DNA of 64,000 nt from Candidatus Doudnabacteria bacterium (GCA_016218585.1 JACRDK010000030.1:24277-88276), one strand, 5' to 3'. Numbered from the stretch's first letter, positions 1,307 through 57,448 are shown. Made by a program: numbers and translations. The notes: a model not told the origin generated them from the letters alone.

Positions 1307-2668
1307 GTGAATTTTGGACAACTGATTGCGATTCTGATGACCGTTCTGCTAATCGGCGGGGCTTTTCCCGTCGCGGCGCAGAGCCAACCGGTATCCACAC
1401 AAACCGCCCAGCCCCACCCGGGTGTCCGGGTGAGCGTGGAGAAGTTTCCGCTCATTCCGCCGGTACCGGGCCAGCGGCCGATTTATACGATCGGCCAGAT
1501 CGTATTCGCCGCCGAAGAAATATACAAAAGCGGCGTCAACGGCTCGTTTGTGAAGGCTTTTGGCCAGGCCAAGAGCCACGTTGAGCAGGCACAGGCAATC
1601 ATCTCCTTTGCCTCCAAAGAGTTGCTCGCGCAGCTCGAGGAGATGAAGAAGTCACCCGAAGGGCCGTTGCCGGAACCGGAGCAATATCAAGCGCTCAAGG
1701 ACCCGAAAGTGGCTTTGGACTACGCCGCTGTCAAACAATCGTTTGTGCCTTTTTCCGAATGGGGTGAAAGTCCTTTCGGAGAGGAAGTAACGGACTGGAA
1801 AGGTCTCTGTGAGACCTATCAGGATACCATGGCCGCGATGATCCAACGCACTAACTATTCACCTGCAATGAAGGTGGAATGGGCAGACGCGTTGGCTCAT
1901 GTGTGTGCCAACGGCCTTGACGGTCGCTACTCCAAGGTGGTGGATTTGGTTGACTGGCCGCTCTGGCAATGGACTACTGGTCGTACTGTTGGGACATCTC
2001 ATTCTGGAAACAGAATACCTGGTGTCAACGTGATGTACGTCGGTGGCCATGCTTCCGCCCTCTATCTCTACCTGCCCAAGTCGGCTACGGTAGTGATGCA
2101 CGGGTTCAAGTGCAAGGGGAATCCGATTGTTCCTTTCGTCATCGGTTCATTCCAGGTGACGAAGGAGACGACGAGGATTCCTGCCTGTTTGGGGCTTAAT
2201 GGCGATTCAGGCTTTGTCCAAACGGGCAAGACTGTTCGTTTCAGCGCTCACTTTGACAACCCTGCCGGAGTGCCTTTTGACTTCCGCTTCATCCTCACGG
2301 ACAAGCGGACCAGCAAAACCAAAGTGCTTGGTGAAAACCAGCCTGAGGTGACGTTGGAGCAGAAGGAGGCCGGCGAGTACGAGGTAAGTGTAACTGGCGA
2401 ATTCGAAGGGAAGCCAATACCAGCCTTGGGCTGTGTAATGGCTATCACCTTCGTTAAGCCCATTCCGCCGCCTCCGCCGACGTTTGTCACTACCACGCCT
2501 CCGCCGACAAGGCCCGCAATCGTTCCGCCGCCGCCCAAGAAGGGTGGGCACGGATGGATCTGGGTTCTTGTAGCGGCAGGTGCTGGCGCTGGCATTGGTC
2601 TGGCACTGATGGGTGGTGGAATTCGCAAGGATCCGGCAACTGCCGCTGGCACCGGCTGGAGACCGTAA
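1307..2668 (+). CDS. Hypothetical secreted, membrane-anchored protein: signal peptide, about 380-aa unknown domain, Pro-rich stalk (PPPPPTFVTTTPPPTRPAIVPPPP) and C-terminal TM helix; encoded in a roughly 58% GC island
   Basis: Long ORF with GTG start. N-terminal hydrophobic signal LIAILMTVLLIGGAFPVAAQ. C-terminal WIWVLVAAGAGAGIGLALMGG TM segment. Base composition is markedly higher in GC than all flanking genes. The 5' leader (1160-1300) contains several GC hairpins, and a T-tract hairpin follows at about 2680-2735. Confidence 0.6.
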   Translation: MNFGQLIAILMTVLLIGGAFPVAAQSQPVSTQTAQPHPGVRVSVEKFPLIPPVPGQRPIYTIGQIVFAAEEIYKSGVNGSFVKAFGQAKSHVEQAQAIISFASKELLAQLEEMKKSPEGPLPEPEQYQALKDPKVALDYAAVKQSFVPFSEWGESPFGEEVTDWKGLCETYQDTMAAMIQRTNYSPAMKVEWADALAHVCANGLDGRYSKVVDLVDWPLWQWTTGRTVGTSHSGNRIPGVNVMYVGGHASALYLYLPKSATVVMHGFKCKGNPIVPFVIGSFQVTKETTRIPACLGLNGDSGFVQTGKTVRFSAHFDNPAGVPFDFRFILTDKRTSKTKVLGENQPEVTLEQKEAGEYEVSVTGEFEGKPIPALGCVMAITFVKPIPPPPPTFVTTTPPPTRPAIVPPPPKKGGHGWIWVLVAAGAGAGIGLALMGGGIRKDPATAAGTGWRP

Positions 2669-5900: not shown

Positions 5901-7289
5901 AATGACGTTGTTAAATACCAGGTCATTATAAAAAATGTCGGCCAAGCTACCGCCAAGAATGTTTTCTTTAACGACAGCAATCCAGCCCAGGTCCAGCCGT
6001 TAACCGGCCTTACTGTCTCCATTGCTTACACCGGCGGCATTCCTGCCGGAGTTGCTTTGGGTGATTTAGCCGCAGGCGCTACCGTGACTATTACTTATCA
6101 GGGAACTGTGAAAGTTGACAGCGGCACTATATTAAACGTAGCCACCGCTTCTTCCGACAACGCAACCAGCCAGAATGCTTCCGCAACAGTAGTTGTTAAT
6201 ACTCAAAACAACAACGGCGGCAACAGCAACTACAACTATTGCGTTAACTATTCCTGCAATACCACAATCAACAACACTACAAACACAACCAACACCACAA
6301 CCACAAATAATAACTACACTTACAACAACTACAGCTACGTTTACATTAACAGCACCGGCAATACTGTACCGGCTAATCAATATAGCCAGTTAAGCATTAC
6401 CAAATCTGTTAGAACTGTAAATAATGGTACTTACCAAAACAGCGTAAACGTAAACAATGGCGATACCGTTGAGTTCGAAATTGTGGTTACTAACTCCGGC
6501 AATCAAAACATAAACAATGTCCGCTTAACCGACAATTTGCCGAGCGGCTTGAATCTGGTAAACGGCAGCGTGCGCGTAGACGGATCTTACGTCTCCAGCA
6601 GCAACCTTTACAGCGGAATGTATTTGGGCAGTTTGTCTACCGGCCAGCAAAAGCGCATTAACTTCCAGGCCACAGTAAACAATTCTAATTCCAGCATTCA
6701 AAATATTGCTATGGTTTCCGGCGACAACGCTTCTTCCGTTCAGGATGATGCCTGGGTGTTTACAAATACGGGTTCTGTCCAGGGCGGCAATGTAAGCCTT
6801 ACTTACAGCAAGCGCGCCATTAACGAAACCAAGAGCCAGGACGCGACTTCTGTAGTTGCCTCCAAGGAAGATTACATTACCTACACCTTAACCGCTTCCA
6901 ACAACGGCAACACTCCGGCCAACAACTTCATTATTACCGATGATTTGTCCCAGGTCTTGCCATATGCCGACATTGTCGACAACGGCGGCGGCAGCGTGAA
7001 CGGAAATGTAATTTCCTTCCCGGGCCTTACTGTTCCGGCTTACGGATCTGTTTCCAGAAGCTTTAAAGTTAGAGTTAAATATTCTTTGGCTGATAACTTG
7101 GCCTATGTTATGACTAATACTTACGGCAACACCTTAAATATTAGAATTAATAACCCGCAGGTTTTGGGAGCCTTTGTTGCTCCGAAGACCGGTGCGGAAA
7201 CCGGCGCCTTTGCTTTCTCCGGATTGTTAACCGCCGCCGCAGCCTTGTTTAAGCGCAGAAAAGAAATTCTAAAGTTAATCTTCACCTAA
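2958..7289 (+). CDS. Giant cell-surface protein (1443 aa): signal anchor, three tandem roughly 120-aa repeats, multiple DUF11-like conserved-repeat domains, Asn/Thr-rich low-complexity region, C-terminal tripartite sorting signal (APKTG/AETG motif, hydrophobic stretch, KRRKE tail)
   Basis: N-terminal TM IGVSIFLVAIAVIGLA. Three near-identical repeats TPPPA..SLGICKANGLY.ANVSWNTNA...AYRFTLWSIDP. DUF11-like units such as VEYRIKVWAGTSVTLTNVIVNDSF, VKYQVIIKNVGQATAKNVFFND and VEFEIVVTNSGNQNINNVRLTDNLP. C-terminus FVAPKTGAETGAFAFSGLLTAAAALFKRRKEILK resembles LPXTG/LAXTG-type cell-wall sorting signals. Confidence 0.85.
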   Translation: MNNIFSKLSIKVSGAIGVSIFLVAIAVIGLAPRQATISRADGCSPVYTSPVFNPYPVTWEDSAGYNCTDFAVLSGNVQGAGFWTDNFQAQPGDSISMRIYVHNGAGSNSGAVMYGVNVNTNIDTTTGTSHVITTTLSASNAASKSGSVTINTPAGSHLELVSGDTSFAVGDMQPCFEYSKAFRFTLKVVADTVVTPPPAETVSGQISSSLGICKANGLYDANVSWNTNASQALVTVSDPNLNSGNYYDNDKVYSYSKTSNETASWLAPNTAYRFTLWSIDPSGTDHSFRDLSNNIVNVKAVRLYETWVTAGASCSQVTPPPANVTGTISTSLGICKANGLYNANVSWNTNATQGLVTVSDPNLKSGDYYDNDKIYSTAETSNETADWLAPLTAYRFTLWSIDPNGVSHTFRDMSNNVVTYKVTRLQESWVTAGASCDQVTPPPANITGTINSSLGICKANGLYNANVSWNTNATQPLVTVSNPPANSNNNYDNDKFYSTTKTGNETADWLTPNTAYRFTLWAIDPNGVNHTFRDLNNNVVTYKVTRLQETWVTAGNTCIDNPPTYENVVCSVSPSNLNVGQSATFTADKGNGTYAWSVTGGSVTSSNQKTFISTFNNAGAYIATVSSNGKTASCTVQVVNDNVCVANTNYYLNATAPAKQGTGYTVKLSWGFDGNHQIKLTQVSSDGSELTLATSPDKTGSLNVFNLQAGKTYTFKMYDIDPTCGKFLTSTQVVVQSNPDQLVCTSDSSSYRVGDTAVFRANGGSGSYSWSGTGNPVSGTGSVFNTSYNTAGNKTVTVTSADGQTAQCSTVVNTVVTENGQVRLTKEVRNITNSETAFAHATSAKQNDTVEYRIKVWAGTSVTLTNVIVNDSFASGLSYIDNSLFVDGTSHAAGLTSGGLTFTSVGQTPLVIIYRAKVTATMGTIVNTAQAVASNATNTAVDQALVNVAYVNPGQPSLSIIKQVKNVTQNTNYDTSVLANKNDVVKYQVIIKNVGQATAKNVFFNDSNPAQVQPLTGLTVSIAYTGGIPAGVALGDLAAGATVTITYQGTVKVDSGTILNVATASSDNATSQNASATVVVNTQNNNGGNSNYNYCVNYSCNTTINNTTNTTNTTTTNNNYTYNNYSYVYINSTGNTVPANQYSQLSITKSVRTVNNGTYQNSVNVNNGDTVEFEIVVTNSGNQNINNVRLTDNLPSGLNLVNGSVRVDGSYVSSSNLYSGMYLGSLSTGQQKRINFQATVNNSNSSIQNIAMVSGDNASSVQDDAWVFTNTGSVQGGNVSLTYSKRAINETKSQDATSVVASKEDYITYTLTASNNGNTPANNFIITDDLSQVLPYADIVDNGGGSVNGNVISFPGLTVPAYGSVSRSFKVRVKYSLADNLAYVMTNTYGNTLNIRINNPQVLGAFVAPKTGAETGAFAFSGLLTAAAALFKRRKEILKLIFT
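3540..4620 (+). repeat. Three tandem roughly 360-bp direct repeats, highly similar at nucleotide level, inside the giant surface protein gene
   Basis: Repeat starts at about 3540, 3900 and 4260 all read gttac(t/g)cctcctccggc...ggaactatt...tctcttgg(t/c)atttgtaaagccaatgg(t/c)ttatacaatgc; the protein units are about 120 aa each. Confidence 0.8.
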
Positions 7290-7299
7290 ACAAAATTGT

Positions 7300-7340
7300 A
7301 AAAACCCCGCCTTTGACTTGCTCAGGGCGGGGTTTTTGTT
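7300..7340 (+). terminator. Rho-independent terminator after the giant surface protein gene
   Basis: aaaaaccccgcc tttgacttgctca gggcggggtttttgttt: a 7-8 bp GC stem followed by a T-run. Confidence 0.8.
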
Positions 7341-7540
7341 TGGGCGCTTGTCAGATGAGTGTAATAACCCTGCCGGTGTCGCCCCGGAATTTTTAGCCTG
7401 CCCGCCGAAGCCTTGGCGAAGTTGGGGGTTGTAAAAATATTCGGGATCCGGAACTTGGCTTAAATACTGGATCCCGGCTCGGGAGCCGGGATGACACCAG
7501 GCTTAGGTTATTGGACTTACGTCTTGCCTGCTTGCATATT
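7341..7540. ncRNA. Candidate structured non-coding RNA of unknown family (GC-rich, multi-hairpin element between a terminator and the next promoter)
   Basis: A roughly 200-nt GC-rich block in an AT-rich intergenic region. Nested helices: cgggatcc...ggatcccg; cccggctc g gagccggg; caggc..gcctg; long-range pairing aataacc/ggttatt and ggtgtc/gacacc enclosing a multi-stem junction. The only ORF (7393-7587 minus) is low-complexity and improbable. No match to SRP RNA, tmRNA, RNase P or tRNA motifs that I could recognise. Confidence 0.35.
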
Positions 7541-7670
7541 TTTTTCCAGATGTTATGATATATACAAATCAAAAAACAAATGAACAAGCGGCAAAATATG
7601 TGCCGTTTTTATTATAAGTAGGATTTTTTTATACCTAGCATCTGTTATCTAATATCTAACATCTAAATTT

Positions 7671-13566: not shown

Positions 13567-13590
13567 ATTAACAAGAGTTGTGAATAAATA

Positions 13591-13624
13591 ACCCCCCCAA
13601 GACAAGTATGTCTTGGGGGGTTTG
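13591..13624 (+). terminator. Rho-independent terminator (12-bp stem) after the repeat-protein gene
   Basis: acccccccaagaca agta tgtcttggggggtttg. Confidence 0.8.
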
Positions 13625-13694
13625 CTTTGACTTTATTGAGGTTTTATAATAAGATTTTGCTACGTTTAGATTTTCAAAAAGGAGGTGTAATCGA

Positions 13695-14282
13695 ATGATT
13701 GCACTGATTAGTGTTACTGACAAAACCGGCATTCAGGAATTTGCCGCCACCCTTTCAGCATTGGGATTCGATCTGGTTTCTACCGGCGGGACAGCAGACA
13801 CTCTTCGCCTCGCCGGGCTTAAAGTAAAAGATGTTTCGGAGCTGACGGGCGTGCCCGCAATGATGGGCGGCAGAGTGAAGACCTTGGATTACCACATTCA
13901 CGCCGGAATCTTGGCGGATCGGGACAATCCGGAGCACATGGCCGATGCCGCAAAGTATGGCATCGAGATGATTGACCTGGTTGTGGTTAACCTCTATGAT
14001 TTTTTGGGTACAGCGGAAGATCCGGATGTTTCTTTGCCGGAACTTACCGAAAGCATCGACATTGGCGGACACACTCTGGTCCGTGCCGCGGCTAAGAACT
14101 GGAAGCATGTCGGTGTGGTGGTTAACCTGCAGGACTACGACCGGATTTCTGAAGAGCTGGTGCAGCGGGGTGGCTGGTTGAGCAGCGGCACCAAGTTAAG
14201 TTTGGCCATTGAGGCCCTCGATGCCGTCGCTTGTTATGACAGGTCTATTCCAGACGTTCTCAGGGACCGTGCCGGCTACTAG
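13695..14282 (+). CDS. purH: Stand-alone IMP cyclohydrolase / MGS-like domain corresponding to the N-terminal half of PurH (AICAR transformylase domain absent); GC-rich, with degenerate conserved motifs, so a possible decaying horizontally acquired fragment
   Basis: ALISVTDKTGIQEFAATLSALGFDLVSTGGTADTL, GRVKTLDYHIHAGILADRDNPEH, VVVNLYDF, IDIGGHTLVRAAAKNWKHVGVVVNLQDY align to the PurH IMPCH domain (actinobacterial-type HAGLLAD). The conserved KTLHP and NLYPF motifs are altered to KTLDY and NLYDF. About 55% GC against about 40% in neighbours. Own promoter-like TTGACT/TATAAT and a strong SD aaggaggtg 7 nt before ATG. Confidence 0.8.
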   Translation: MIALISVTDKTGIQEFAATLSALGFDLVSTGGTADTLRLAGLKVKDVSELTGVPAMMGGRVKTLDYHIHAGILADRDNPEHMADAAKYGIEMIDLVVVNLYDFLGTAEDPDVSLPELTESIDIGGHTLVRAAAKNWKHVGVVVNLQDYDRISEELVQRGGWLSSGTKLSLAIEALDAVACYDRSIPDVLRDRAGY

Positions 14283-14305
14283 CAAATCACAGCAGTCTAT
14301 CTAAC

Positions 14306-14345
14306 AAAGCGGTTCCCGGAAATAGTGTTCGGGAACCGCTTTTGC
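14306..14345 (+). terminator. Rho-independent terminator after the purH-fragment cassette
   Basis: aaagcggttcccg gaaatagtgtt cgggaaccgcttttgc. Confidence 0.8.
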
Positions 14346-14385
14346 TATGTATTAGATTCACTAAAGGTGTGGTAAAATAAATGGT

Positions 14386-22833: not shown

Positions 22834-24630
22834 ATGCCAAATATCACAGCGCAAGAATTAAGAAATAAATACCTTAATTTCTTCAAATCAAAAAACCATA
22901 CCATCATTCCTTCGGCGTCTTTGGTGCCAGAAAATGATTCCAGCGTGCTGTTTACAACCGCAGGAATGCATCCACTGGTTCCATATCTTTTAGGACAACA
23001 GCATCCGGGCGGAACCCGTGTAACCGACGTGCAAAAATGCATACGCACCGGCGACATTGAAGAAGTTGGCGACAACACCCATTTAACATTCTTTGAAATG
23101 TTGGGCAATTGGAGTTTTGGCGACTACTTTAAAAAAGAAGCGATTACCTGGAGCTTTGAATTTTTAACCGGCAAAGAAAATTTAAACATTCCGCTTGAAC
23201 GTTTGGCGGTATCAGTTTTTGCCGGAGACAATGATGCTCCGCGCGACGAAGAAGCCGCGGCAATTTGGAAATCTTTAGGCGTGGCGGAAGATCGCATTGC
23301 TTATTTGCCAAAAGCAGATAACTGGTGGATTGCCGGCACAACCGGACCATGCGGGCCGGATACAGAAATGTTTTATTGGATAGACGACGGGACTCCGGCG
23401 CCAAAAAATTTCCAGGAAACCAAGGAAGATAAGCGTTGGGTGGAAATCTGGAATGACGTGTTTATGCAATTTGAAAAGCATGAAGACGGCACGCTTACCC
23501 CTTTGCCAAAACCAAATGTGGATACCGGAATGGGCTTAGACAGAACTTTGGCAGTTTTAAACGGCCAAACCTCGGTTTATGACACTGAACTATTCAAACC
23601 AATGTTTGATGTTTTAGCGATGGACCAGGAAATAATGACTAATGACGAAGTTAAAAAAGCCAGAATTATTTTGGACCATATTCGCGCCGCGGTATTTATT
23701 GTGAGCGACGGAGTTGAGCCTTCAAATAAAGATCGCGGGTATGTTCTAAGAAGGCTTCTAAGGCGCGCGATGGTAATGGGCAGGCTTTTAAATTTAAAAC
23801 TCCACTGGCTTAAAGCTTTGGTTGGCCAGGTTATTTTTGCCTATGCTGAAAGTTATCCGGACCTAACCGCAAAGTCAGAACAAATTTTTGCAACAATTGA
23901 AGGTGAGCAAAAGAAGTTTGAAAGCACATTGGAAAAGGGATTAAAACAATTGGAGTCAAGAATCAAGAGTCAGGAATCAGGAATTAGTGGCACGGATGCC
24001 TTCGATTTGTATCAAACCTATGGTTTTCCGAAAGAGTTAACCAAAGAGCTGGCTGTTCAATCGGGGCAAGTTTTTGATGCGGAAAAAGAAAAAGAGTATG
24101 AAACGGAATTCAAAAAGCATCAGGAACTTTCCCGTACGGCTTCTGCCGGACAGTTTAAGGGCGGGCTAGCGAGCCACTCTGACAAGATTGTGCGCTTGCA
24201 TACCGCCACCCACTTAATGAACGCGGCTTTGAGAAAAGTTTTAGGAACAGACGTTTGGCAAAAGGGGAGTAACATTACCGAAGAGCGCACCAGGTTTGAT
24301 TTTACCCACAATCAGAAAATGACAGACGAAGAAAAGAAGCAAGTGGAAGATTTGGTTAATGGCTGGGTGCAGCGCGATTTAACCGTCAAAAAAGAAATTA
24401 TGCCTTACGAAGAAGCCCGCAAGCTTGAAGCCATTGGCGTGTTCGGAGAAAAGTATGCGGAAACCGTTTCTGTTTATACGGTGTTTGACCCCAATACAAA
24501 TGAAGTTGTTTCCCGCGAATTTTGCGGCGGTCCGCATGTTGAACATACCGGGGTAATCGGCAAATTTAAAATCCAAAAGGAAGAAGCTTCTTCCGCCGGG
24601 GTTCGAAGGATCAAAGCGGTGATAGAATAG
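22834..24630 (+). CDS. alaS: Alanine--tRNA ligase, short form lacking the C-terminal C-Ala domain
   Basis: N-terminal class II core FFKSKNHTIIPSASLVP...FTTAGMHPLVPY, WSFGDYFK, editing-domain HTATHLMNAAL and CGGPHVEHTG motifs; ends ...GVRRIKAVIE. Confidence 0.9.
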   Translation: MPNITAQELRNKYLNFFKSKNHTIIPSASLVPENDSSVLFTTAGMHPLVPYLLGQQHPGGTRVTDVQKCIRTGDIEEVGDNTHLTFFEMLGNWSFGDYFKKEAITWSFEFLTGKENLNIPLERLAVSVFAGDNDAPRDEEAAAIWKSLGVAEDRIAYLPKADNWWIAGTTGPCGPDTEMFYWIDDGTPAPKNFQETKEDKRWVEIWNDVFMQFEKHEDGTLTPLPKPNVDTGMGLDRTLAVLNGQTSVYDTELFKPMFDVLAMDQEIMTNDEVKKARIILDHIRAAVFIVSDGVEPSNKDRGYVLRRLLRRAMVMGRLLNLKLHWLKALVGQVIFAYAESYPDLTAKSEQIFATIEGEQKKFESTLEKGLKQLESRIKSQESGISGTDAFDLYQTYGFPKELTKELAVQSGQVFDAEKEKEYETEFKKHQELSRTASAGQFKGGLASHSDKIVRLHTATHLMNAALRKVLGTDVWQKGSNITEERTRFDFTHNQKMTDEEKKQVEDLVNGWVQRDLTVKKEIMPYEEARKLEAIGVFGEKYAETVSVYTVFDPNTNEVVSREFCGGPHVEHTGVIGKFKIQKEEASSAGVRRIKAVIE

Positions 24631-24677
24631 CTTCTAGTTAGTTGGGGGTAGTTTGTAGTTAGTAGAAGGGAGCCAAA

Positions 24678-25043
24678 ATGCAAATCAAAAGTTATAAAGA
24701 CTTAATTGTCTGGCAAAAATCAATGGATTTGGTAGTGGATATATATAAAATTTCTGAAAAGTTTCCTAAGGAAGAACTGTATGGGCTTACTTCGCAAATT
24801 CGAAGATGTGCAGTTTCAATCCCGTCAAATATCGCCGAAGGAAACAGAAGAGGTAGTAAAAAAGATTTTAGTCATTTCTTAACAGTTTCGTTTGGTTCGG
24901 GGTCTGAACTAGAAACGCAGATAGAAATTGTAAAGCGTTTACCATTTGGAAGTAATCTAGATTTTACAAAGATTGACGCATTATTATTAGAAATAATGAA
25001 AATGCTAAATAAGTTAATTGCAAGCCTACAACCTACTAACTAA
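24678..25043 (+). CDS. Four-helix-bundle protein of the 23S-rRNA intervening-sequence (TIGR02436-like) family, flanked by imperfect inverted repeats
   Basis: YKDLIVWQKSMDLVVDIYKISEKFPKEELYGLTSQIRRCAVSIPSNIAEG matches the four-helix-bundle family. The left flank gtagtttgtagttagtag (about 24646-24664) is inverted relative to the right flank ctactaactaattactac (about 25033-25052). Confidence 0.8.
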   Translation: MQIKSYKDLIVWQKSMDLVVDIYKISEKFPKEELYGLTSQIRRCAVSIPSNIAEGNRRGSKKDFSHFLTVSFGSGSELETQIEIVKRLPFGSNLDFTKIDALLLEIMKMLNKLIASLQPTN

Positions 25044-49933: not shown

Positions 49934-50329
49934 ATGTCAAATGTAATGGAAAAAATAGGTAATGCAGACAATTTAATAAAAGAAGCTAAATCAATTATTG
50001 ATTTGAGGTATAAAAAAGGTGCGCATTCAGTGGGTGCAGCCTTAAGAACAAAATCGGGAAAGATTTACACAGGCATAAGCATAAAAGGTTTAAAGTTGGA
50101 TTTGTGCTCAGAATGGACTGCAATAGGCAGAGCATTTGTTGAAGGAGAAACGGAAATTGAATCTATCGTTGCGGTTCACAGAAAAGAAGATGGAACTTTT
50201 GAATTTTTCCCGCCTTGCGGATTATGCAGAGAGCTGTTAACTAAATATTGTCCCGATGCTTTGGTCATATTTTCAGAAAATGAATTTAAAAAAGCATCAG
50301 ACTTATTGCCGTCAGCCTGGAAAAGATAA
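49934..50329 (+). CDS. cdd: Cytidine deaminase (small tetrameric CDA-type zinc deaminase)
   Basis: CSEWTAIG (the C/H-A-E motif equivalent) and PPCGLCRELL (PCxxC zinc ligands); 131 aa. Confidence 0.75.
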   Translation: MSNVMEKIGNADNLIKEAKSIIDLRYKKGAHSVGAALRTKSGKIYTGISIKGLKLDLCSEWTAIGRAFVEGETEIESIVAVHRKEDGTFEFFPPCGLCRELLTKYCPDALVIFSENEFKKASDLLPSAWKR

Positions 50330-50331
50330 AT

Positions 50332-50979
50332 ATGAATAACATACCAGTTGAACAACTAGCAAAAAAGATATGGGAGTATCATCATCTTAATCACAAACTT
50401 TCAAAGGCAGATTGCATACTAGTTTTGGGGAGTCATGATATTAGGGTTGCTGTTCGGGCCGCAGAATTATTTTTAGAAGGGTATGCGCCATTAATGGTAT
50501 TTTCTGGAGGTTATGGACGACTAACTCAAGGTTTGTGGAATGAACCGGAAGCAATTGTTTTCTCAAAGATTGCTATTGAAATGGGGGTGCCAAAAGATCA
50601 AATAATTATTGAGGATAAATCTACAAACACGGGAGAGAATATAGTATTTACAAAAAAGTTGTTAGAAGAGAAAGGCATAAATCCCAAAACAATCATCTTG
50701 GTTCAAAAGCCGTATATGGAGCGAAGAGCTTACGCAACGTTTAAGAAATTTTGGCCGGAAAAAGATTGCATTGCAACTTCCCAGCAAGTTTCGTTTGATG
50801 ATTATCCGACAAAAGATATTAGTAAGGATGATTTAATTAGCATTTTGGTTGGCGATTTACAGCGAATCAAAACGTATCCGGAAAAAGGTTTTCAAATTCA
50901 TCAGGAAATTCCGGATGACGTATGGAGTGCATATGAACTATTAGTTAAAGCAGGTTACAATAAATACTTAACAAATTAA
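50332..50979 (+). CDS. DUF218 / YdcF-SanA family protein
   Basis: CILVLGSHDIRVAVRAAELFLEGYAPLMVFSGGYG... matches the YdcF-like Rossmann fold family. Confidence 0.7.
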   Translation: MNNIPVEQLAKKIWEYHHLNHKLSKADCILVLGSHDIRVAVRAAELFLEGYAPLMVFSGGYGRLTQGLWNEPEAIVFSKIAIEMGVPKDQIIIEDKSTNTGENIVFTKKLLEEKGINPKTIILVQKPYMERRAYATFKKFWPEKDCIATSQQVSFDDYPTKDISKDDLISILVGDLQRIKTYPEKGFQIHQEIPDDVWSAYELLVKAGYNKYLTN

Positions 50980-50999
50980 TTAATTTATAAAGGAAAAAT

Positions 51000-51299
51000 A
51001 TGGGAAACGATTATTTGAAGAGAGAACCAAGCAAAACAGAAAAAATGATTTACGAGCTTGTAATGGCGCAGAACTCTATGGAAAAGGGTTTGTGGTCTAC
51101 TTCCAGCTTAGTTATGGTTTTAGCAATTTTAACCAAGCAAGATCCAAAAGCTATTGCTGAATTAATGGTAAATGGCGACGAAAAATTAAGAGAATTTAGC
51201 GGGAAAATTAACGAAGAAATTAAAAAGTTAGAAGAAGAAAAGCATAAAGGCCACGATCACGCTAAAGAAGAAAAACCAGCCGAAGAAGCCAAGGCCTAA
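51000..51299 (+). CDS. Hypothetical small protein (Lys/Glu-rich C-terminus)
   Basis: 99-aa ORF, no motif recognised. Confidence 0.45.
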   Translation: MGNDYLKREPSKTEKMIYELVMAQNSMEKGLWSTSSLVMVLAILTKQDPKAIAELMVNGDEKLREFSGKINEEIKKLEEEKHKGHDHAKEEKPAEEAKA

Positions 51300-51313
51300 C
51301 CAAAAATTAAACC

Positions 51314-51401
51314 CACTATATTACTATATTGTAATATAGTGAAAATAAAAAAATTCACAACAAAATTAACAGGCACTCTATTACTCCAGTGTAATAGACT
51401 G
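51314..51401. promoter_or_regulatory. Pair of related palindromic operator-like sites (CAC-T[A/C]TATTAC-N6-GTAATA[T/G]A[G/C]-TG), centres 60 bp apart, immediately upstream of the NUDIX gene
   Basis: Site 1 at 51314-51341 cactatattac tatatt gtaatatagtg is perfect. Site 2 at 51374-51401 cactctattac tccagt gtaatagactg has one mismatch. Both are 11-6-11 inverted repeats. Confidence 0.55.
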
Positions 51402-51411
51402 ATAAGAAAAT

Positions 51412-51840
51412 ATGGAGCAAGGAAATCAGCAAAGACCAATAGTCGGTATAGGCGTGATGCTTTTTAAAGATGGAAAAATTTTATTGGGTAAAAGAAAGGG
51501 TCATGTTGGTTTTGGCACGTATGGCTGGCCAGGTGGCAAGCAAGAGTTTAAGGAATCTTTTGCAGCTTGTGCCAAGCGAGAGGTTATGGAAGAAGCCGGA
51601 ATCGAAATTAGCGATATAAAATTTTTAAGGCTGATGAACTACATTTCTGAAAACGGAACTCATTTTTGCGATATTCAATTAACTGCTCAATGGTTTTCCG
51701 GAGAGCCTAAAACATTAGAATCAGACAAATGCGAAGGCTGGCAATGGTATAATATAAATAATTTACCCGAGCCGATGTTTGAACCGACGATAACCGCCAT
51801 CGAAGCGTATAAAACAGGAAAAAACTTTTTTGACAACTAA
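51412..51840 (+). CDS. NUDIX hydrolase
   Basis: Nudix box GWPGGKQEFKESFAACAKREVMEEAGIEI (Gx5Ex7REUxEExGU). Confidence 0.85.
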   Translation: MEQGNQQRPIVGIGVMLFKDGKILLGKRKGHVGFGTYGWPGGKQEFKESFAACAKREVMEEAGIEISDIKFLRLMNYISENGTHFCDIQLTAQWFSGEPKTLESDKCEGWQWYNINNLPEPMFEPTITAIEAYKTGKNFFDN

Positions 51841-51842
51841 TT

Positions 51843-52421
51843 ATGAAATACATAATTTTTTCAGGGACAACAGGCTCGGGAAAAGATACTATAATTAACA
51901 GGTTGCATGAAGATTTAAAAAACCTTCAAATTGAGCCAGTTAAAAGAGCTTGGTATTATACAACAAGAAAGGTTGACCGAAAGGGTGAAAACCCTAATAG
52001 GAAAGACAAAATTAGCGATGAGGAATTCAATGAAAAAGTATCAAAGGGTGAAATTATTTTAGATCATAAAAATTCAAATTATCAAGTTGGTTATCCGTCA
52101 GAAATTCTAAACGAAAAGTCAGGAATTATTATATTTAATATAGCTGTGTGGGCGGCAAAGCAACTTCAGGATTATGCTTTACAAAATGATGGACGTGCCG
52201 TAACTATTTTTTTAGATGCTCCTAAGGAACAGCGGATTGGTAGAATTAAACATCGGGATGGGTTGAGCGCTGACGAGTCCGTGATTTTTAAGGTTGAAAA
52301 CGATATAACAAAATCTGAACATGCAACAGGATATAATTTAGTAGTTCAAAATAAAGATGGCGATTTGGAAAAAAATTACGAGATTATTTTAAGTAAGGTT
52401 AAAGAATTTTTAAATGCTTAA
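51843..52421 (+). CDS. Guanylate-kinase-like P-loop nucleoside monophosphate kinase (paralog 1)
   Basis: P-loop FSGTTGSGKDT; YTTRKVDRKGENPNRKDKISDEEFNEKVSKGEIILDH...NYQVGYP parallels the guanylate kinase TTR.pR.gE..G.dY.F.s.eeF...GeflE.a...gn.YGT region. Confidence 0.65.
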   Translation: MKYIIFSGTTGSGKDTIINRLHEDLKNLQIEPVKRAWYYTTRKVDRKGENPNRKDKISDEEFNEKVSKGEIILDHKNSNYQVGYPSEILNEKSGIIIFNIAVWAAKQLQDYALQNDGRAVTIFLDAPKEQRIGRIKHRDGLSADESVIFKVENDITKSEHATGYNLVVQNKDGDLEKNYEIILSKVKEFLNA

Positions 52422-52959
52422 ATTTATTACCGGAAATAAAACAAAGTTTAATGAGGTGCAAGCGGCTCTCGCGCCTATTAAGGTTGAACAAATTAATATA
52501 GATTTACACGAAATTCAAGAAGTTGATCCTAAAAAGATAATTGAACACAAGCTAAAAGAAGCCTTTAATCATTATAAGGGCGAATTTATTATAGATGACA
52601 GCTCTTTATTTTTAAGCTGTTTTAATTACAAGCTTCCCGGCCCGTTGATAAAATGGTTTAATGATTCTATTGGCACAAAAAAGATTTATGAAATGTGCAA
52701 AAAAATGGGTGACCAAAAAGCCAGAGCCACAACCTTTATTGGGTACGCAAAAAGTCCTAAAGAAATTGAATTTTTTGAAGGAACGATGAATGGCAAAATT
52801 ATAAAACCAAAAGGTAAATATAATTTTGGCTACGACCCGATTTTTGTGCCAAACGGCAAAAAAGAAACCCTCTCGCAAATGAAAGCGTCTGGAAATTTTT
52901 TTAGTAGCCCCCGCGGGTTAGCGGTATTAAAGTTGAAAAAATATTTAAGTGTTAAATAG
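52414..52959 (+). CDS. rdgB: Ham1/RdgB-family non-canonical purine NTP pyrophosphatase (ITPase)
   Basis: FGYDPIFVPNGKKETLSQMKASGNFFSSPRGLAVLKL matches the ITPase C-terminal signature (FGYDP.F.P.G...T.AEM....K...SHRG.A); N-terminal ITGNKTKF. Confidence 0.8.
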   Translation: MLKFITGNKTKFNEVQAALAPIKVEQINIDLHEIQEVDPKKIIEHKLKEAFNHYKGEFIIDDSSLFLSCFNYKLPGPLIKWFNDSIGTKKIYEMCKKMGDQKARATTFIGYAKSPKEIEFFEGTMNGKIIKPKGKYNFGYDPIFVPNGKKETLSQMKASGNFFSSPRGLAVLKLKKYLSVK

Positions 52960-52962
52960 AAT

Positions 52963-53562
52963 ATGAAGATTATTATTATTTGTGGTCCTACAGCCTCGGG
53001 CAAAGATTCTGTAATAGATGAAATGTATAGGGAACTAAATCAAGAGTATCCTGGAAAAGTATCACAGGCAACTTACTTTAAAACAAGGGCTGCCAGACCA
53101 CAGGAGAAAATAGACAAATATTTTATTTCTGAAGAAGAGTTTGAGAAAAAAAGAGGTTCAGGGGAAATTCCAGATGAATTTTGGGGAGAGGTAAGTAATT
53201 ATCGCGTGGGGTATTCAATTAATGAGTTTACAAAATCAGAAATTGTTTTAGTAAATATTGATGACAAAAAAGCTAGAAATTTAAAAGAAGTTGCCCAACA
53301 AAGCAACAACGAAGTTCTTTCTATATTTTTACATGCCCCGGAGGAAGTAAGAAAACAAAGATTTATGTCCCGTGAAGGATGGCTAATTTACGAACCTGCT
53401 GAATATAGGTTAAGTCATGATGTCACAGACCCTAATCCTGAAAATCACAAAGATTTTGATCTGATTGTGGAAAATAAAGAAGGTGCGTTGGCGGAAACAA
53501 TGAAGGAAATTATGCCCGCGGTAAAAGAGTTTGTTGAATCAAATAAAACAATTAAAAATTGA
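52963..53562 (+). CDS. Guanylate-kinase-like P-loop nucleoside monophosphate kinase (paralog 2)
   Basis: P-loop CGPTASGKDS; FKTRAARPQEKIDKYFISEEEFEKKRGSGEIPDEFWGEVSNYRVGYS; divergent paralog of 51843-52421. Confidence 0.65.
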   Translation: MKIIIICGPTASGKDSVIDEMYRELNQEYPGKVSQATYFKTRAARPQEKIDKYFISEEEFEKKRGSGEIPDEFWGEVSNYRVGYSINEFTKSEIVLVNIDDKKARNLKEVAQQSNNEVLSIFLHAPEEVRKQRFMSREGWLIYEPAEYRLSHDVTDPNPENHKDFDLIVENKEGALAETMKEIMPAVKEFVESNKTIKN

Positions 53563-53567
53563 GATAA

Positions 53568-56168
53568 ATGAAATCAGTTAGACTTTCAAGCCATATAAAG
53601 CCCGAACGATACCGATTGTTTATTAAACCAGATTTAAAGAGGTTTATTTTTGAGGGTGAAGAAACGATTTATCTTAATATTGAAAAACCGGTAAATGAGA
53701 TTACACTTCATACTAAAGAGCTTAAAATTTTGCAGGCAAAATTTAGAATCAAAAATTATGAATTAAGAATTAAGAATAGGGACATACGGTACAACGAGCA
53801 GAATCAAACCGTAACATTTAAGTTAAAACAAACAGTTAAAGCGGGGAAAGGGGAGTTGTCTTTAAAGTTTACCGGCATTTTAAACGATAAAATGAGAGGT
53901 TTTTACAGAAGCCAGTATAAGTCCAAAAACCAGCAAAAACACCTTGCTACAACGCAATTTGAGGCCACAGATGCACGCAGGGCTTTCCCATGCTTTGACG
54001 AGCCCAGCGCCAAGGCTATTTTTGACGTCACCTTAATGGTTCCAAAAAAGTTAGCTGTGGTTTCCAACACAATTGAATCTGAAGTTTTAGAGCACCAAGG
54101 TGAATATAAAACCGTTAAGTTCGCGCCAACGCCAAAAATGTCTACCTATTTATTAGCGTTCATTGTTGGCGACTTGGAATATATTGAAGGCAGAACGCGG
54201 AACAGCGCGGAAAAGGCCGGCAGCGCGGAACAGCGCGGAAAAAATACAAATTCCGGTACGCTAGTTAGAGTCTTTACCACGCCGGGCAAAAAGCACCAGG
54301 CAAAATTCGCGCTCGACACCGCAATCCGCTGCTTGGAATTTTATAACAGCTATTTTGATATTCCATATCCGCTGCCGGTTTTGGATTTAATTGCCATTCC
54401 GGATTTTAACAGCGCCGCTATGGAAAATTGGGGCGCGATAACTTACCGCGAGTCAGCCTTGCTGATTGACGAAAAGAATTCATCTCTGTCTTCTAAACAG
54501 TGGGTGGCAATTGTAATTGCCCACGAAATTGCGCACCAATGGTTTGGCAATTTGGTAACAATGGAGTGGTGGACGCATTTGTGGCTAAACGAAGGCTTTG
54601 CTTCCTATATGGAATATTTATGCACCGACAAATTATTCCCGCAATGGAATATGTGGGAGCAATATGTGGCGCAAAGATTCAACACCGCGCTGGAACTGGA
54701 CTCGCTTACCAACACCCATCCAATTGAAGTTGAGGTTCACCACCCGGAGGAGATTAGCGAAATTTTTGACGCGGTGTCTTATGCTAAAGGTTCGGTAGTT
54801 ATCCGCATGCTGGCAGAATATTTGGGCGAGAAAACTTTTCGCGACGGTTTAAGATATTATTTAAAAAAACATTCCTACCAAAATGCTTCAACCATACATT
54901 TGTGGGAAGCGTTTGAAAAAGTTTCCGGAAAACCGGTAAAAAAGTTAATGCTTAATTGGACTTCCGCGCCCGGATATCCGCTAGTTCGAGTTGTGGAAAA
55001 AGAAAAGCAGTTAGTATTAATGCAGTCTCGCTTTTATTCCAGCGCGATTTCCAAAGCATCGTCTACAGACAAAACCATTTGGCAAATTCCTGTTACCATT
55101 AAAAACGGCAAAAAAATTTCCAAACATTTATTGGGGGCGAAGTCAATTAAAATTCCTAAAACCTCCAAAACCTGGATTAAATTAAACGCCGGGGAAACTT
55201 CGTTTTTTAGAACCGATTATCCGGCGCAAATGCTTGGCGCTTTGAGCAATGGGTTGCCCCAGCTTTCAGCCATAGACAGGCTTGGCGTGGTAAGGGATGC
55301 GTTTACTTTGTCCGAGTCGGGAGATTTACCCGCCACGCAAGCTTTGGAGTTGGTTAAACATTTTAAAAATGAAAAAGACTACAATGCCTGGCTAATGATT
55401 TGTTTTGGCCTTGGGAACATTGGCGGCCTGGCCCGCAACTTAAAATCTTACCCGCTCTATGAAAAGTTCGCTTTAGGAATAATTCAAAATATTTTGCAGA
55501 CGGTCGGGGTCAAAGAGGCAAAAGGCGAAACCGGCGCCCAGGTGCTTTTGCGCAGCTTAATTTTGCAGCAAGCGGTAAAATGGGGCGATAAAAAAACAGT
55601 TGCCTGGGCTTTGGCGCAATTTAACAAAAACTCTCCGGTCCCCGTAAATTTGCGTTCTGTTGTTTATTTTGCCGCCGCCCAGTTTGGTTCAAGCAAGGAG
55701 CATGCAAAGTTAGTTAAAATGTACACCCAAGAGGAGATGCAGGAAGAAAAAGACCGAATAGGCAGAAGCCTGGCGCATTTTAAAAATCCGGAATTATTAA
55801 AAAAGACTTTGGCCTTTGCTTTAAGCAAACAGGTAAGAGACCAGGACGCGCCGTTTATTATTGCCGCGGTTTTCCGCAACTGGGCAGGAAGCGCCATTGC
55901 CTTGGATTTTGTTAAAAAGCATTGGGGTGAGCTGCTTAAGCGCTACGCTTCTGGCTTGAGCATGATTTCCAGAATAATCGGCACAATGGATAATTTTTAC
56001 TCGGAAGAAAAAGCAAAAGAAATAGAAAAGTTTTTTAAAGCACATAAAGCTCCAGGAGCGAAGCGTTCTATTAAACAAACCTTGGAAAAAATTCGCTCAC
56101 AGGCGGCCTGGCTTAAGCGCGACGGCAAACCATTGGACAACTGGTTATTAAAACAAAATGAAAAATAA
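53568..56168 (+). CDS. pepN: Aminopeptidase N (M1 family zinc metallopeptidase)
   Basis: GAMEN exopeptidase motif (AAMENWGAITY), HEIAHQWFGNLVTMEWWTHLWLNEGFASY (HExxH-x18-E), ERAP1-like C-terminal domain. Confidence 0.9.
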   Translation: MKSVRLSSHIKPERYRLFIKPDLKRFIFEGEETIYLNIEKPVNEITLHTKELKILQAKFRIKNYELRIKNRDIRYNEQNQTVTFKLKQTVKAGKGELSLKFTGILNDKMRGFYRSQYKSKNQQKHLATTQFEATDARRAFPCFDEPSAKAIFDVTLMVPKKLAVVSNTIESEVLEHQGEYKTVKFAPTPKMSTYLLAFIVGDLEYIEGRTRNSAEKAGSAEQRGKNTNSGTLVRVFTTPGKKHQAKFALDTAIRCLEFYNSYFDIPYPLPVLDLIAIPDFNSAAMENWGAITYRESALLIDEKNSSLSSKQWVAIVIAHEIAHQWFGNLVTMEWWTHLWLNEGFASYMEYLCTDKLFPQWNMWEQYVAQRFNTALELDSLTNTHPIEVEVHHPEEISEIFDAVSYAKGSVVIRMLAEYLGEKTFRDGLRYYLKKHSYQNASTIHLWEAFEKVSGKPVKKLMLNWTSAPGYPLVRVVEKEKQLVLMQSRFYSSAISKASSTDKTIWQIPVTIKNGKKISKHLLGAKSIKIPKTSKTWIKLNAGETSFFRTDYPAQMLGALSNGLPQLSAIDRLGVVRDAFTLSESGDLPATQALELVKHFKNEKDYNAWLMICFGLGNIGGLARNLKSYPLYEKFALGIIQNILQTVGVKEAKGETGAQVLLRSLILQQAVKWGDKKTVAWALAQFNKNSPVPVNLRSVVYFAAAQFGSSKEHAKLVKMYTQEEMQEEKDRIGRSLAHFKNPELLKKTLAFALSKQVRDQDAPFIIAAVFRNWAGSAIALDFVKKHWGELLKRYASGLSMISRIIGTMDNFYSEEKAKEIEKFFKAHKAPGAKRSIKQTLEKIRSQAAWLKRDGKPLDNWLLKQNEK

Positions 56169-56748
56169 GCTTACAATTTTTTTGCTGGTAATTTTTGGGG
56201 TTTTGCCGTCACTGGCTAAAGCCCAGGTTTCTGCCGCGGACTCAGACGGAGACGGTTTAACCGACGCGCAGGAAACAAATATTTATCACACCAATCCCCA
56301 AAATCCGGACACTGATAATGACGGTTTTTTAGACGGAGATGAAATAAAATATAATTACGATCCAAATAAAAATTCCGAAGACAAATTACAAAAGAAAATT
56401 TTTATAGCATTAGCCGATCAAAGCCTGAGCTATCGCCTCGGCGATTACATTGTTGGCAGCATAAAAATTTCCAGCGGTTTGCCGGCCACGCCGACGCCAA
56501 CGGGAAGTTTTGAAATTGAATCTAAGAAGCCTTTGGTGGATTACATTGGAGCTGATTACAATTTTAAAAACACCCGCTGGAATATGCTGTTTAAAAAACA
56601 CTCGCCTTTGAATTACTACATTCACGGGGCTTTTTGGCATAACAATTTTGGCCAGCCAATGAGCCATGGGTGCATTAATGTTTCTTATAAAGACATTGAG
56701 CCGCTGTATAACTGGGCGGATGTCGGAACTCAGGTAATCATCCAGTAA
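56158..56748 (+). CDS. L,D-transpeptidase (YkuD domain) with N-terminal thrombospondin-type-3-like Asp-rich calcium-binding repeats
   Basis: Catalytic HGAFWHNNFGQPMSHGCINVSYKD (H...SHGC); N-terminal DSDGDGLTDAQETNIYHTNPQNPDTDNDGFLDGDE. Confidence 0.85.
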   Translation: MKNKLTIFLLVIFGVLPSLAKAQVSAADSDGDGLTDAQETNIYHTNPQNPDTDNDGFLDGDEIKYNYDPNKNSEDKLQKKIFIALADQSLSYRLGDYIVGSIKISSGLPATPTPTGSFEIESKKPLVDYIGADYNFKNTRWNMLFKKHSPLNYYIHGAFWHNNFGQPMSHGCINVSYKDIEPLYNWADVGTQVIIQ

Positions 56749-56752
56749 TTAA

Positions 56753-57448
56753 ATGAATATTCAATTTAAAATTTTTAAAAACTTTCCCGAAGTTCGCTGC
56801 GGCTTGTCGCAAAAAGTAGACGGCAGTATGGGTTTGTCGTCCCAAAAAATGTCCGGCAATTTTAAAACCTTTTTTCGCAAGCAGGGGATTAGCCCCGACC
56901 AGGTTGTCCGCGCGGGGTTGGAGCATAAAGACCGGGTTGCTAAATCGGGCCCGGATAGCGCGGGAAAAACCATACCTCACTGCGACGCCCTTCATACAAC
57001 AGAAAAGAATCTTTGCCTTAGCGTAACCGTTGCCGATTGTTATCCAATTTATTTTTTTAATCCCGAAAACGGAAAAGTCGCCATTGCACACAGCGGTTGG
57101 AAAGGCTGCGTAAGCGGATTATTGCCGGCTTTGGTTAAAACTTTATCAACCAATCCGGAAAGGCTGCTTGTAGGAGTTGGCCCGGGAATCGGACCGTGTC
57201 ATTTTGAAATTCAAAATGATATTTTGTCGGAGTTTAATAACTTTTCCAGCGCGGTTAGTTTTAAAGACGGAAAAATATTTGTTGATTTGCCAAAAATTAT
57301 TAGAATTCAGTTAGAAAAAGCCGGCGTCTTGGCCGAAAATATTGAATTTTTTAACGAATGCACTGCTTGCTTGCCCGGAAGCTATTTTTCCTATCGCCGG
57401 GACAAACCAAAAGAGCTGGAAACCATGGTGGCATATATTTATCTTTAA
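56753..57448 (+). CDS. pgeF: Peptidoglycan editing factor PgeF / YfiH (DUF152, Cu-oxidase_4) family
   Basis: CDALHTTEKNLCLSVTVADCYPIYFF...VAIAHSGWKG (ADCxP and HxGWRG-like motifs), C-terminal Cys (ECTACLPGSYFSYRR). Confidence 0.85.
   Translation: MNIQFKIFKNFPEVRCGLSQKVDGSMGLSSQKMSGNFKTFFRKQGISPDQVVRAGLEHKDRVAKSGPDSAGKTIPHCDALHTTEKNLCLSVTVADCYPIYFFNPENGKVAIAHSGWKGCVSGLLPALVKTLSTNPERLLVGVGPGIGPCHFEIQNDILSEFNNFSSAVSFKDGKIFVDLPKIIRIQLEKAGVLAENIEFFNECTACLPGSYFSYRRDKPKELETMVAYIYL

Follow-up and report, generated by a model that had tools for sequence, protein, structure and literature searches.

Candidate stand-alone IMP cyclohydrolase with family-specific changes in its lid loops, encoded in a surface-polysaccharide cluster of Candidatus Doudnabacteria

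Inosine monophosphate (IMP) cyclohydrolase (IMPCH, or MGS-like) domains are found in PurH/ATIC, where they are fused to a 5-aminoimidazole-4-carboxamide ribonucleotide (AICAR) transformylase (AICARFT) domain, and also in unfused proteins of about 200 amino acids (aa), known as PurJ or PurH2 (e.g., Archaeoglobus fulgidus AF1811 and the proteins of Desulfovibrionales, Thermodesulfobacteria and Prevotellaceae), whose genes are often located away from other pur genes. The gene purJ has been recognised in 50 bacterial genomes (PMC6486802), and both catalysis and complementation of E. coli have been shown for the unfused PurH2 of A. fulgidus (PMC6797443). Here we describe a gene of this kind, located at positions 13695-14282 (+ strand; 195 codons plus the stop) of a stretch of 64,000 nucleotides (nt) from a Candidatus Doudnabacteria bacterium (GCA_016218585.1 JACRDK010000030.1:24277-88276), hereafter the window. 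Stand-alone IMPCH is a kind already known, of which this gene encodes an unusual, remodelled variant. With a probability of roughly 0.6, we consider that its product is a functional stand-alone IMP cyclohydrolase-type enzyme of the PurJ/PurH2 kind, belonging to a small, fast-evolving subfamily in which the lid of the active site is probably altered.

The identity of the domain is supported by three sets of matches. In Pfam, the open reading frame (ORF) matches PF02142 (MGS-like) with 68.7 bits (cut-off 24.1) over residues 13-127, and PF01808 (AICARFT_IMPCHas) with 37.4 bits (cut-off 25) over only positions 1-59 of the 311 in that profile. Of the NCBIfam purH profiles, only positions 7-195 of 510 align with the protein, whose scores lie far below the equivalog thresholds (227.9 vs. 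402 for NF002049 and 208.7 vs. 528 for TIGR00355), while PurH/ATIC chains of the PDB align with it through their residues 5-195, approximately (E 1e-46 to 3e-49). Because all of these matches are confined to the same region, the protein corresponds end to end to the IMPCH half of PurH and stops at the point where the transformylase would start, as the first-pass annotation of this DNA had proposed. The nearest database protein, and the sole near-identical one, is P0001, from a Candidatus Doudnabacteria metagenome-assembled genome (MAG). In its deposited annotation (HY918_05275, 173 aa, "hypothetical protein") this protein begins at an internal TTG, 22 codons late, leaving off the region 13695-13760 with the phosphate-binding loop SVTDKTG. 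The true start is likely the ATG at 13695, which is preceded, 9 nt upstream, by a Shine-Dalgarno (SD) sequence, AGGAGG (13680-13685, + strand).

Six other database proteins of 191-216 aa (P0004, P0005, P0022, P0024, P0071 and P0031) carry the motifs NLYDF and AAKNW, and form with the window protein a family of seven members. The residues listed as catalytic or ligand-binding in the cyclohydrolase site of ATIC (PMC9525906), namely Arg64, Lys66, Thr67, Tyr104, Asp125-Ile126-Gly127 and Lys137 in human numbering, are all present in the seven members. Both phosphate loops (SVSDK and STGGT in ATIC) are also kept as S6-K10 and S29-T33, invariant in 7/7. In the numbering of the window protein, the residues invariant throughout the family are S6, D9, K10, G12, S29-T33, R60, K62, T63, N99, Y101, F103, D122-G125, R130, K134 and N135. 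The retention of every catalytic and phosphate-binding residue speaks against the decaying fragment proposed in the earlier annotation.

By contrast, the signature strings that canonical PurJ proteins keep, KTLHP and NLY[A/P]F, are replaced in the window protein by KTLDY and NLYDF, as had been noticed in the first-pass annotation. In KTLDY (codons K62-Y66, 13878-13892, + strand; K66-P70 of human ATIC), the catalytic Lys and the Thr are retained, and the changes of H to D and of P to Y fall within the rim loop 56-71. In NLYDF (codons N99-F103, 13989-14003, + strand; human N102-F106), the catalytic Tyr is retained, Asp takes the place of A/P in the rim loop 103-106, and the E-K-T that follows becomes L-G-T. 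A third stretch, encoded by codons D122-W136 (DIGGHTLVRAAAKNW; 14058-14102, + strand) and ending in AAKNW (14088-14102), retains the catalytic Asp (human D125) and Lys (K137) and carries Trp instead of F/H/Y; additionally, a His at position 126, after DIGG, is observed in the window protein only, at a site where Pro is 99% conserved. Both KTLHP and NLYPF had been described as invariant, which they are to a lesser degree than assumed. In KTLHP, among the 334 canonical IMPCH domains that we used as a reference for residue frequencies, H reaches 97% and P 100% (variants exist in full-length PurH). For NLYPF the description is wrong, as 55% of the domains have A at the variable position, 39% have P and 1% have D.

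Throughout the family, the specific changes (human numbering) comprise F57 to I/V/L, D62 to G, H69 to D/S, P70 to Y/H and H73 to A in the region of loop 56-71 (the window protein retains H73), together with A/P105 to D, T109 to A, N123 to Q/S/K and F/H/Y139 to W, a hydrophobic residue in place of E107 and a small one in place of K108. KTLHP is changed in five of the six relatives, one of the six being N-terminally incomplete as called, and P70 is replaced by Y or H in 6/7 members. Most of these changes are located in the rim loops 56-71 and 103-106, which in the Cryptococcus ATIC shift inward and close the site upon binding of xanthosine monophosphate (XMP) (PMC9525906), and the substituted residues may contact one another. 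As the substitutions sit in the two loops that close over the ligand, the behaviour of the lid or its specificity is probably altered. Single deviations of this type are also observed in full-length PurH, for instance KTLHH (L031, L032, L038), KTLTH, KTLNP, KTLSP and KTLQP, and NLYDF with AAKNW is typical of the full-length PurH of Bryobacterales. Since each substitution is found singly in full-length PurH, each one is probably compatible with activity.

An AlphaFold2 model obtained from 60 sequences (pLDDT 95.0, pTM 0.90) was compared with known structures using Foldseek. The superposition on human ATIC with XMP (1PKX) gave a template-modelling score (TM) of 0.95 and a root-mean-square deviation of 1.1-1.4 Å, with TM values of 0.92-0.96 and the same range of deviations for the human, avian and fungal ATIC as a group. 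On this model, the window protein can be predicted with confidence to have the IMPCH fold of ATIC. Compared with the IMPCH domain of PurH/ATIC (human 1PKX/1P4R, avian 1G8M), the protein shows 49-50% identity and shares all the listed active-site residues, but it lacks the AICARFT domain and its intertwined dimer, and H69, P70, P105 and H139 are replaced.

Other described proteins are also informative for comparison. The best PDB sequence match of the window protein (170 bits, 50% identity) is the PurH of Methanosarcina acetivorans (9OU7 chain DA), a full-length archaeal protein. In a PurH-aEF2 heterotetramer with empty active sites it brings about the dimerisation of 50S ribosomal subunits (PMC12605026), so that the PurH fold can serve outside metabolism; nothing here links the window protein, from the candidate phyla radiation (CPR), to ribosomes. 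ForH (PDB 6NKO) is also unfused, with about 200 aa, and shares the fold of the window protein, but at 36-38% identity it is farther from it than ATIC (109 vs. 162 bits and TM 0.88 vs. 0.95; PurH/ATIC range 162-170 bits). ForH is a stand-alone homologue that acts in formycin biosynthesis and is encoded within a C-nucleoside biosynthetic cluster. The neighbours of the window gene are polysaccharide and secreted-protein genes, with no formycin/pyrazofurin-type cluster among them, and ForH is not the closest match of its product. Mobile genomes can also carry an unfused IMPCH gene, as in the cyanophages P-SSM2/5/7 (phrog_30501 aligned end to end with the window protein, E 3.6e-44). The cyanophage PurH2 keeps canonical motifs, is encoded directly after an AICARFT gene and is 41-42% identical to the window protein, below cellular PurH. 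Another IMPCH-like gene, encoding 209 aa and also stand-alone, was observed on a viral contig (L044, 2997-3626; IMG/VR IMGVR_UViG_3300018080_000203). Its product is 40% identical to the window protein and has AAKNW, NLYPF and a different rewrite of a rim loop also changed in the window protein (GRMKTISFNFESALLY); the gene adjoins a dCMP deaminase-like gene (zinc-binding motifs, by eye), and no AICARFT was found in this 9.6-kb locus.

The span 13591-14345 constitutes a complete single-gene unit, from an upstream to a downstream hairpin. The first one, terminator-like, with a 12-bp stem and a T-rich tail (13593-13620, + strand; -24.4 kcal/mol, z -4.4), is located 3′ of the gene for a 617-aa protein. 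A hairpin occupies an equivalent position in five of the six family loci, among them L008, whose gene upstream of the hairpin is not the same as in the others, so that the conserved unit has its 5′ edge here. It is followed by a putative sigma-70-type promoter (13627-13655, + strand), with a -35 box TTGACT (13627-13632), a 17-nt spacer and a -10 box TAAGAT (13650-13655). When the six family loci are aligned, TTGACTT and TA..AT do not vary. The AGGAGG is invariant in five aligned loci, and L005 deviates at this point in the six-locus alignment (GAACAGGAA). After the stop codon there is a second terminator-like hairpin with a 15-bp stem (14306-14342, + strand; -24.7 kcal/mol, z -5.9), which is also present in other family loci, and the next gene encodes a Wzx flippase. 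Thus, as in PurJ/PurH2, the IMPCH domain stands alone in a gene with its own putative promoter, SD and terminator-like hairpin.

P0022, P0024 and P0004 occupy the slot of the window gene in three other assemblies (GCA_964477745.1, GCA_020026565.1 and CAZFQP01) and three Logan contigs, as far as the contigs reach; L001-L004 are GCA_964477745.1 and the three Logan contigs. The gene order is epimerase, GT2, S8 peptidase, 617-aa protein, IMPCH gene and then a Wzx-led block, with a 453-aa minus-strand gene between the IMPCH gene and this block in L001-L004 and L006. The orthology of these syntenic members is based on their position and shared promoter, and not on the tree. The truly different context is that of L005 only. 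L008 has another upstream neighbour, and it was considered as an independent cassette insertion, but this was rejected in favour of a local rearrangement, as its downstream gene is that of L001, L006 and L012. The reading frame is whole in the six members checked at the DNA level, none of the seven sequences has internal stops, and dN/dS is 0.09-0.22 among the closer members (P0022, P0005 and P0024), with synonymous sites near saturation. Judged from these comparisons, the gene is kept under purifying selection. With invariant catalytic residues and syntenic orthologues besides, it does not have the marks of a pseudogene, and a conserved split gene in relatives, half of what the first-pass annotation had set against its own proposal of decay, has been found.

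The family is small. No further members were obtained from a profile search of a word-indexed database, from a hidden Markov model search run exhaustively against 1.84 billion cluster representatives, or from two metagenome motif scans. A motif scan of one genome for each of the 185,579 GTDB species found the stand-alone variant NLYDF...RAAAKNW in two CPR MAGs only; the remaining 18 matches have canonical KTLHP-type motifs and are mostly full-length PurH, chiefly of Bryobacterales, three of them being short or running off the locus. In neighbour-joining trees with two taxon samplings the seven members form a clade both times (bootstrap 15% for all seven, 45% for a core of five and 100% for a trio), with a sister group that differs between samplings. 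The family is not nested inside the PurH of Bryobacterales, although the latter has NLYDF and AAKNW as well. In summary, the seven sequences constitute a rare and accessory subfamily that evolves fast and has been observed to date only on contigs of CPR type that are related to the Doudnabacteria genome studied here. Nothing relevant on IMP cyclohydrolase or purH in CPR/Patescibacteria was found in the literature. Two GTDB-representative MAGs with the gene (L012 and L016, the latter being L001) were labelled by their submitters as "uncultured Candidatus Saccharibacteria"; as their genes are 65-85% identical to those of the MAG labelled Candidatus Doudnabacteria, one of the two labels is probably loose.

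In the reading that we favour, the gene would be driven by its own putative, strong promoter as a monocistronic unit within a variable region of the cell-surface polysaccharide cluster, and the protein would bind a ribonucleotide 5′-phosphate in an ATIC-type pocket, where it would most likely ring-close formyl-AICAR (FAICAR), or a close formamido analogue, to IMP, probably with a changed lid behaviour or specificity. Several observations weigh against this reading. No purV, purH, purP or other de novo purine gene was found in the window or in the family loci (up to 20 kb), and a true orphan would be atypical, as purJ coexists with purV in 44 of the 50 bacterial genomes mentioned above and with purH in four (PMC6486802). 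In addition, most genes of nucleotide synthesis are reportedly absent from CPR bacteria, including Doudnabacteria (PMC8407418), and the cells may therefore be unable to make the canonical substrate. In the equally related genomes L039, L041, L042 and L043, whose 617-aa proteins are 67-80% identical to that of the window, the slot lacks the gene. Among four syntenic genomes, the identity of the IMPCH protein is 50-56% (70% for one pair), that of the less diverged neighbours being 78-84% (617-aa protein) and 65-75% (S8 peptidase), and this faster evolution fits relaxed or changed constraint. Finally, the combination of lid substitutions occurs only in this family. Thus, unlike canonical purJ, which almost always coexists with purV or purP, the subfamily is accessory and GC-aberrant, has no partner gene in the loci covered and belongs to a group reported as pathway-poor. 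What makes the subfamily of interest is that it keeps the full catalytic machinery and is selected, with both lids of the active site rebuilt, in bacteria whose group reportedly has no de novo nucleotide synthesis. If the organism cannot make FAICAR, either late purine intermediates derived from the host are salvaged or the fold has a new job. Little is known of how CPR episymbionts manage their nucleotides, and either outcome would add a concrete and testable element to this picture.

Among the alternatives, the one that survives best, although we regard it as doubtful, is an ordinary split purH, in which the AICARFT half, purV, and the remaining pathway genes would be located elsewhere in the genome and the window gene would be an unlinked purJ with drifted motifs. 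The pair purV/purJ is indeed the commonest replacement of purH, and 34 of the 50 bacterial purJ are not beside pur genes (PMC6486802); the canonical purJ of Dissulfuribacter is also outside a pur context, and our view is confined to 64 kb of the genome. The absence of de novo purine enzymes noticed in the first-pass annotation was confirmed for the 51 window ORFs that were scanned with Pfam. By contrast, the reported lack of nucleotide-synthesis genes in Doudnabacteria and other CPR argues against this explanation, as does the empty slot in similarly related genomes, which would be unexpected for an essential step unless the pathway were missing there too. The finding of the stand-alone NLYDF...RAAAKNW variant in only two MAGs of the GTDB scan points in the same direction.

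A rather unlikely alternative is that the fold has been repurposed, the remodelled lid serving a new substrate or a non-catalytic role in an accessory function of an episymbiont rather than purine synthesis. For instance, the protein might cyclise or hydrolyse another formamido- or C-nucleotide scavenged from the host, sense IMP, XMP or AICAR, or bind a protein. The lack of pathway genes nearby, the accessory distribution within the variable region, the evolution of the gene at a faster rate than its neighbours and the coordinated changes of both rim loops, including that of P70, which is present in 100% of the 334 canonical domains, would be explained in this way. There are also precedents in ForH, in the PurH-aEF2 of M. 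acetivorans and in the MGS-like domain of CarB (1CE8), for which IMP is an effector. However, a mere binding protein would not need the entire catalytic apparatus, which is strictly invariant, and single lid substitutions are tolerated in full-length, presumably active PurH. Moreover, no biosynthetic or defence context was found, as the neighbouring polysaccharide genes lie across terminators and PADLOC gave no hit, and ForH is a more distant match than ATIC. It is less likely still that the seven-member subfamily represents a new use of the IMPCH fold by episymbiotic CPR, in which the coordinated changes of both lid loops would serve a new nucleotide substrate (for instance a C-nucleotide or an AICAR/FAICAR-type compound from the host) or nucleotide sensing, the gene being carried as an accessory unit with its own promoter and terminator and with a GC-rich codon usage that is actively maintained.

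The base composition of the gene is unusual, with a GC content of 0.541 and a GC content at third codon positions (GC3) of 0.607, compared with means of 0.409 and 0.412 for the genes of the window (z = 3.1 and 2.7). Adenine is avoided at third positions (A3, 0.12 vs. 0.26), where C and G (C3, G3) are both raised. The earlier description of a self-contained GC-rich unit with a promoter and an SD therefore stands. All the family members are GC-rich (GC 0.53-0.57, GC3 0.59-0.65, in loci of 0.40-0.45), and their GC3 stays near 0.6. Because all of them share this richness although their synonymous divergence is saturated, with a common slot and promoter, it cannot be accounted for by recent transfer, and compositional "foreignness" is here no evidence of such an event. 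Two other explanations were rejected: an overlapping antisense gene, since antisense open frames vary in length across members, and the codon bias of highly expressed genes, since ribosomal-protein genes raise C3 only. The resemblance to actinobacterial PurH that had been proposed is limited to a local HAGxLAD string, as the PurH of Mycobacterium tuberculosis scores 126 bits compared with 162 for human ATIC and 170 for M. acetivorans. The view of the gene as a foreign cassette thus holds in part, with a transfer that is neither recent nor demonstrably actinobacterial. That the gene is a decaying remnant of a purH recently acquired from a high-GC, actinobacterial donor, as suggested by its composition and third positions, its altered signature residues and the IS200-like remnant and Bro-N gene found in the variable region elsewhere, is very improbable, as the ORF is whole in every member with low dN/dS and invariant catalytic residues, the predicted fold is ATIC-like, syntenic orthologues conserve the promoter, tblastn with 25 AICARFT domains against the window and the family loci gave nothing below E 0.08, and the shared GC-richness, a sister group that shifts between trees and an actinobacterial PurH that is not the closest give no sign of a recent event or of such a donor.

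A second GC-rich outlier was observed at 1307-2668 (+ strand; 453 aa, GC 0.56, GC3 0.63), with an A-avoiding third-position bias like that of the IMPCH gene. As read from the translation, its product has an N-terminal hydrophobic segment resembling a signal peptide and, after a Pro-rich stretch, a hydrophobic C-terminal segment that may span the membrane; no match was found in Pfam, PADLOC or PHROG.

The variable region corresponds to window positions 13567-14385, between the gene for the 617-aa secreted protein, whose homologues among Doudnabacteria and Patescibacteria number in the hundreds, and that for the Wzx flippase. As the slot holds other cargo in relatives, the IMPCH gene is one alternative occupant of this region. 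This cargo comprises a 478-aa gene only in L039; a remnant of an IS200-like transposase (tnpA) that reads as frameshifted (6855-7566, by eye), plus a 452-aa gene, in L041; Bro-N, aminotransferase, M23 and EamA genes in L042; and PMT_2 and GT2 in L043. No IMPCH remnant was detected by tblastn in L039-L041, and no IMPCH gene was called at the slot in L042 or L043. The occupants of the region elsewhere include a minus-strand gene of about 453-478 aa without assigned function. The wider cluster is also variable among strains: L001-L004 show 0-1 nt differences in the IMPCH gene vs. 77-94 in the 617-aa gene. A selective sweep on the IMPCH gene was considered as an explanation and dropped, as a sliding comparison gave a mosaic with a near-zero baseline (0-3 differences in most 200-nt windows) and sharp recombined patches of 10-25% divergence, which affect the genes for the 617-aa and 453-aa proteins, the 3′ end of Wzx with the cytidylyltransferase, GT4 and GT2. 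This mosaic suggests frequent recombination in the surface-polysaccharide cluster.

Two other regions of the window deserve mention. Positions 49934-57448 contain genes for nucleotide salvage or house-cleaning, not all of them adjacent, which encode a cytidine/dCMP deaminase, a DUF218 protein, a NUDIX protein, two guanylate-kinase-like proteins, a Ham1-type ITP/XTP pyrophosphatase and, further along, a PF02578 (YfiH/LACC1-type) protein; this run is consistent with a nucleotide economy that depends on salvage and includes IMP. At 22834-25043, the product of the alanyl-tRNA synthetase gene (598 aa) terminates after the second additional domain, and the gene that comes directly next encodes a 23S rRNA intervening-sequence protein (PF05635).

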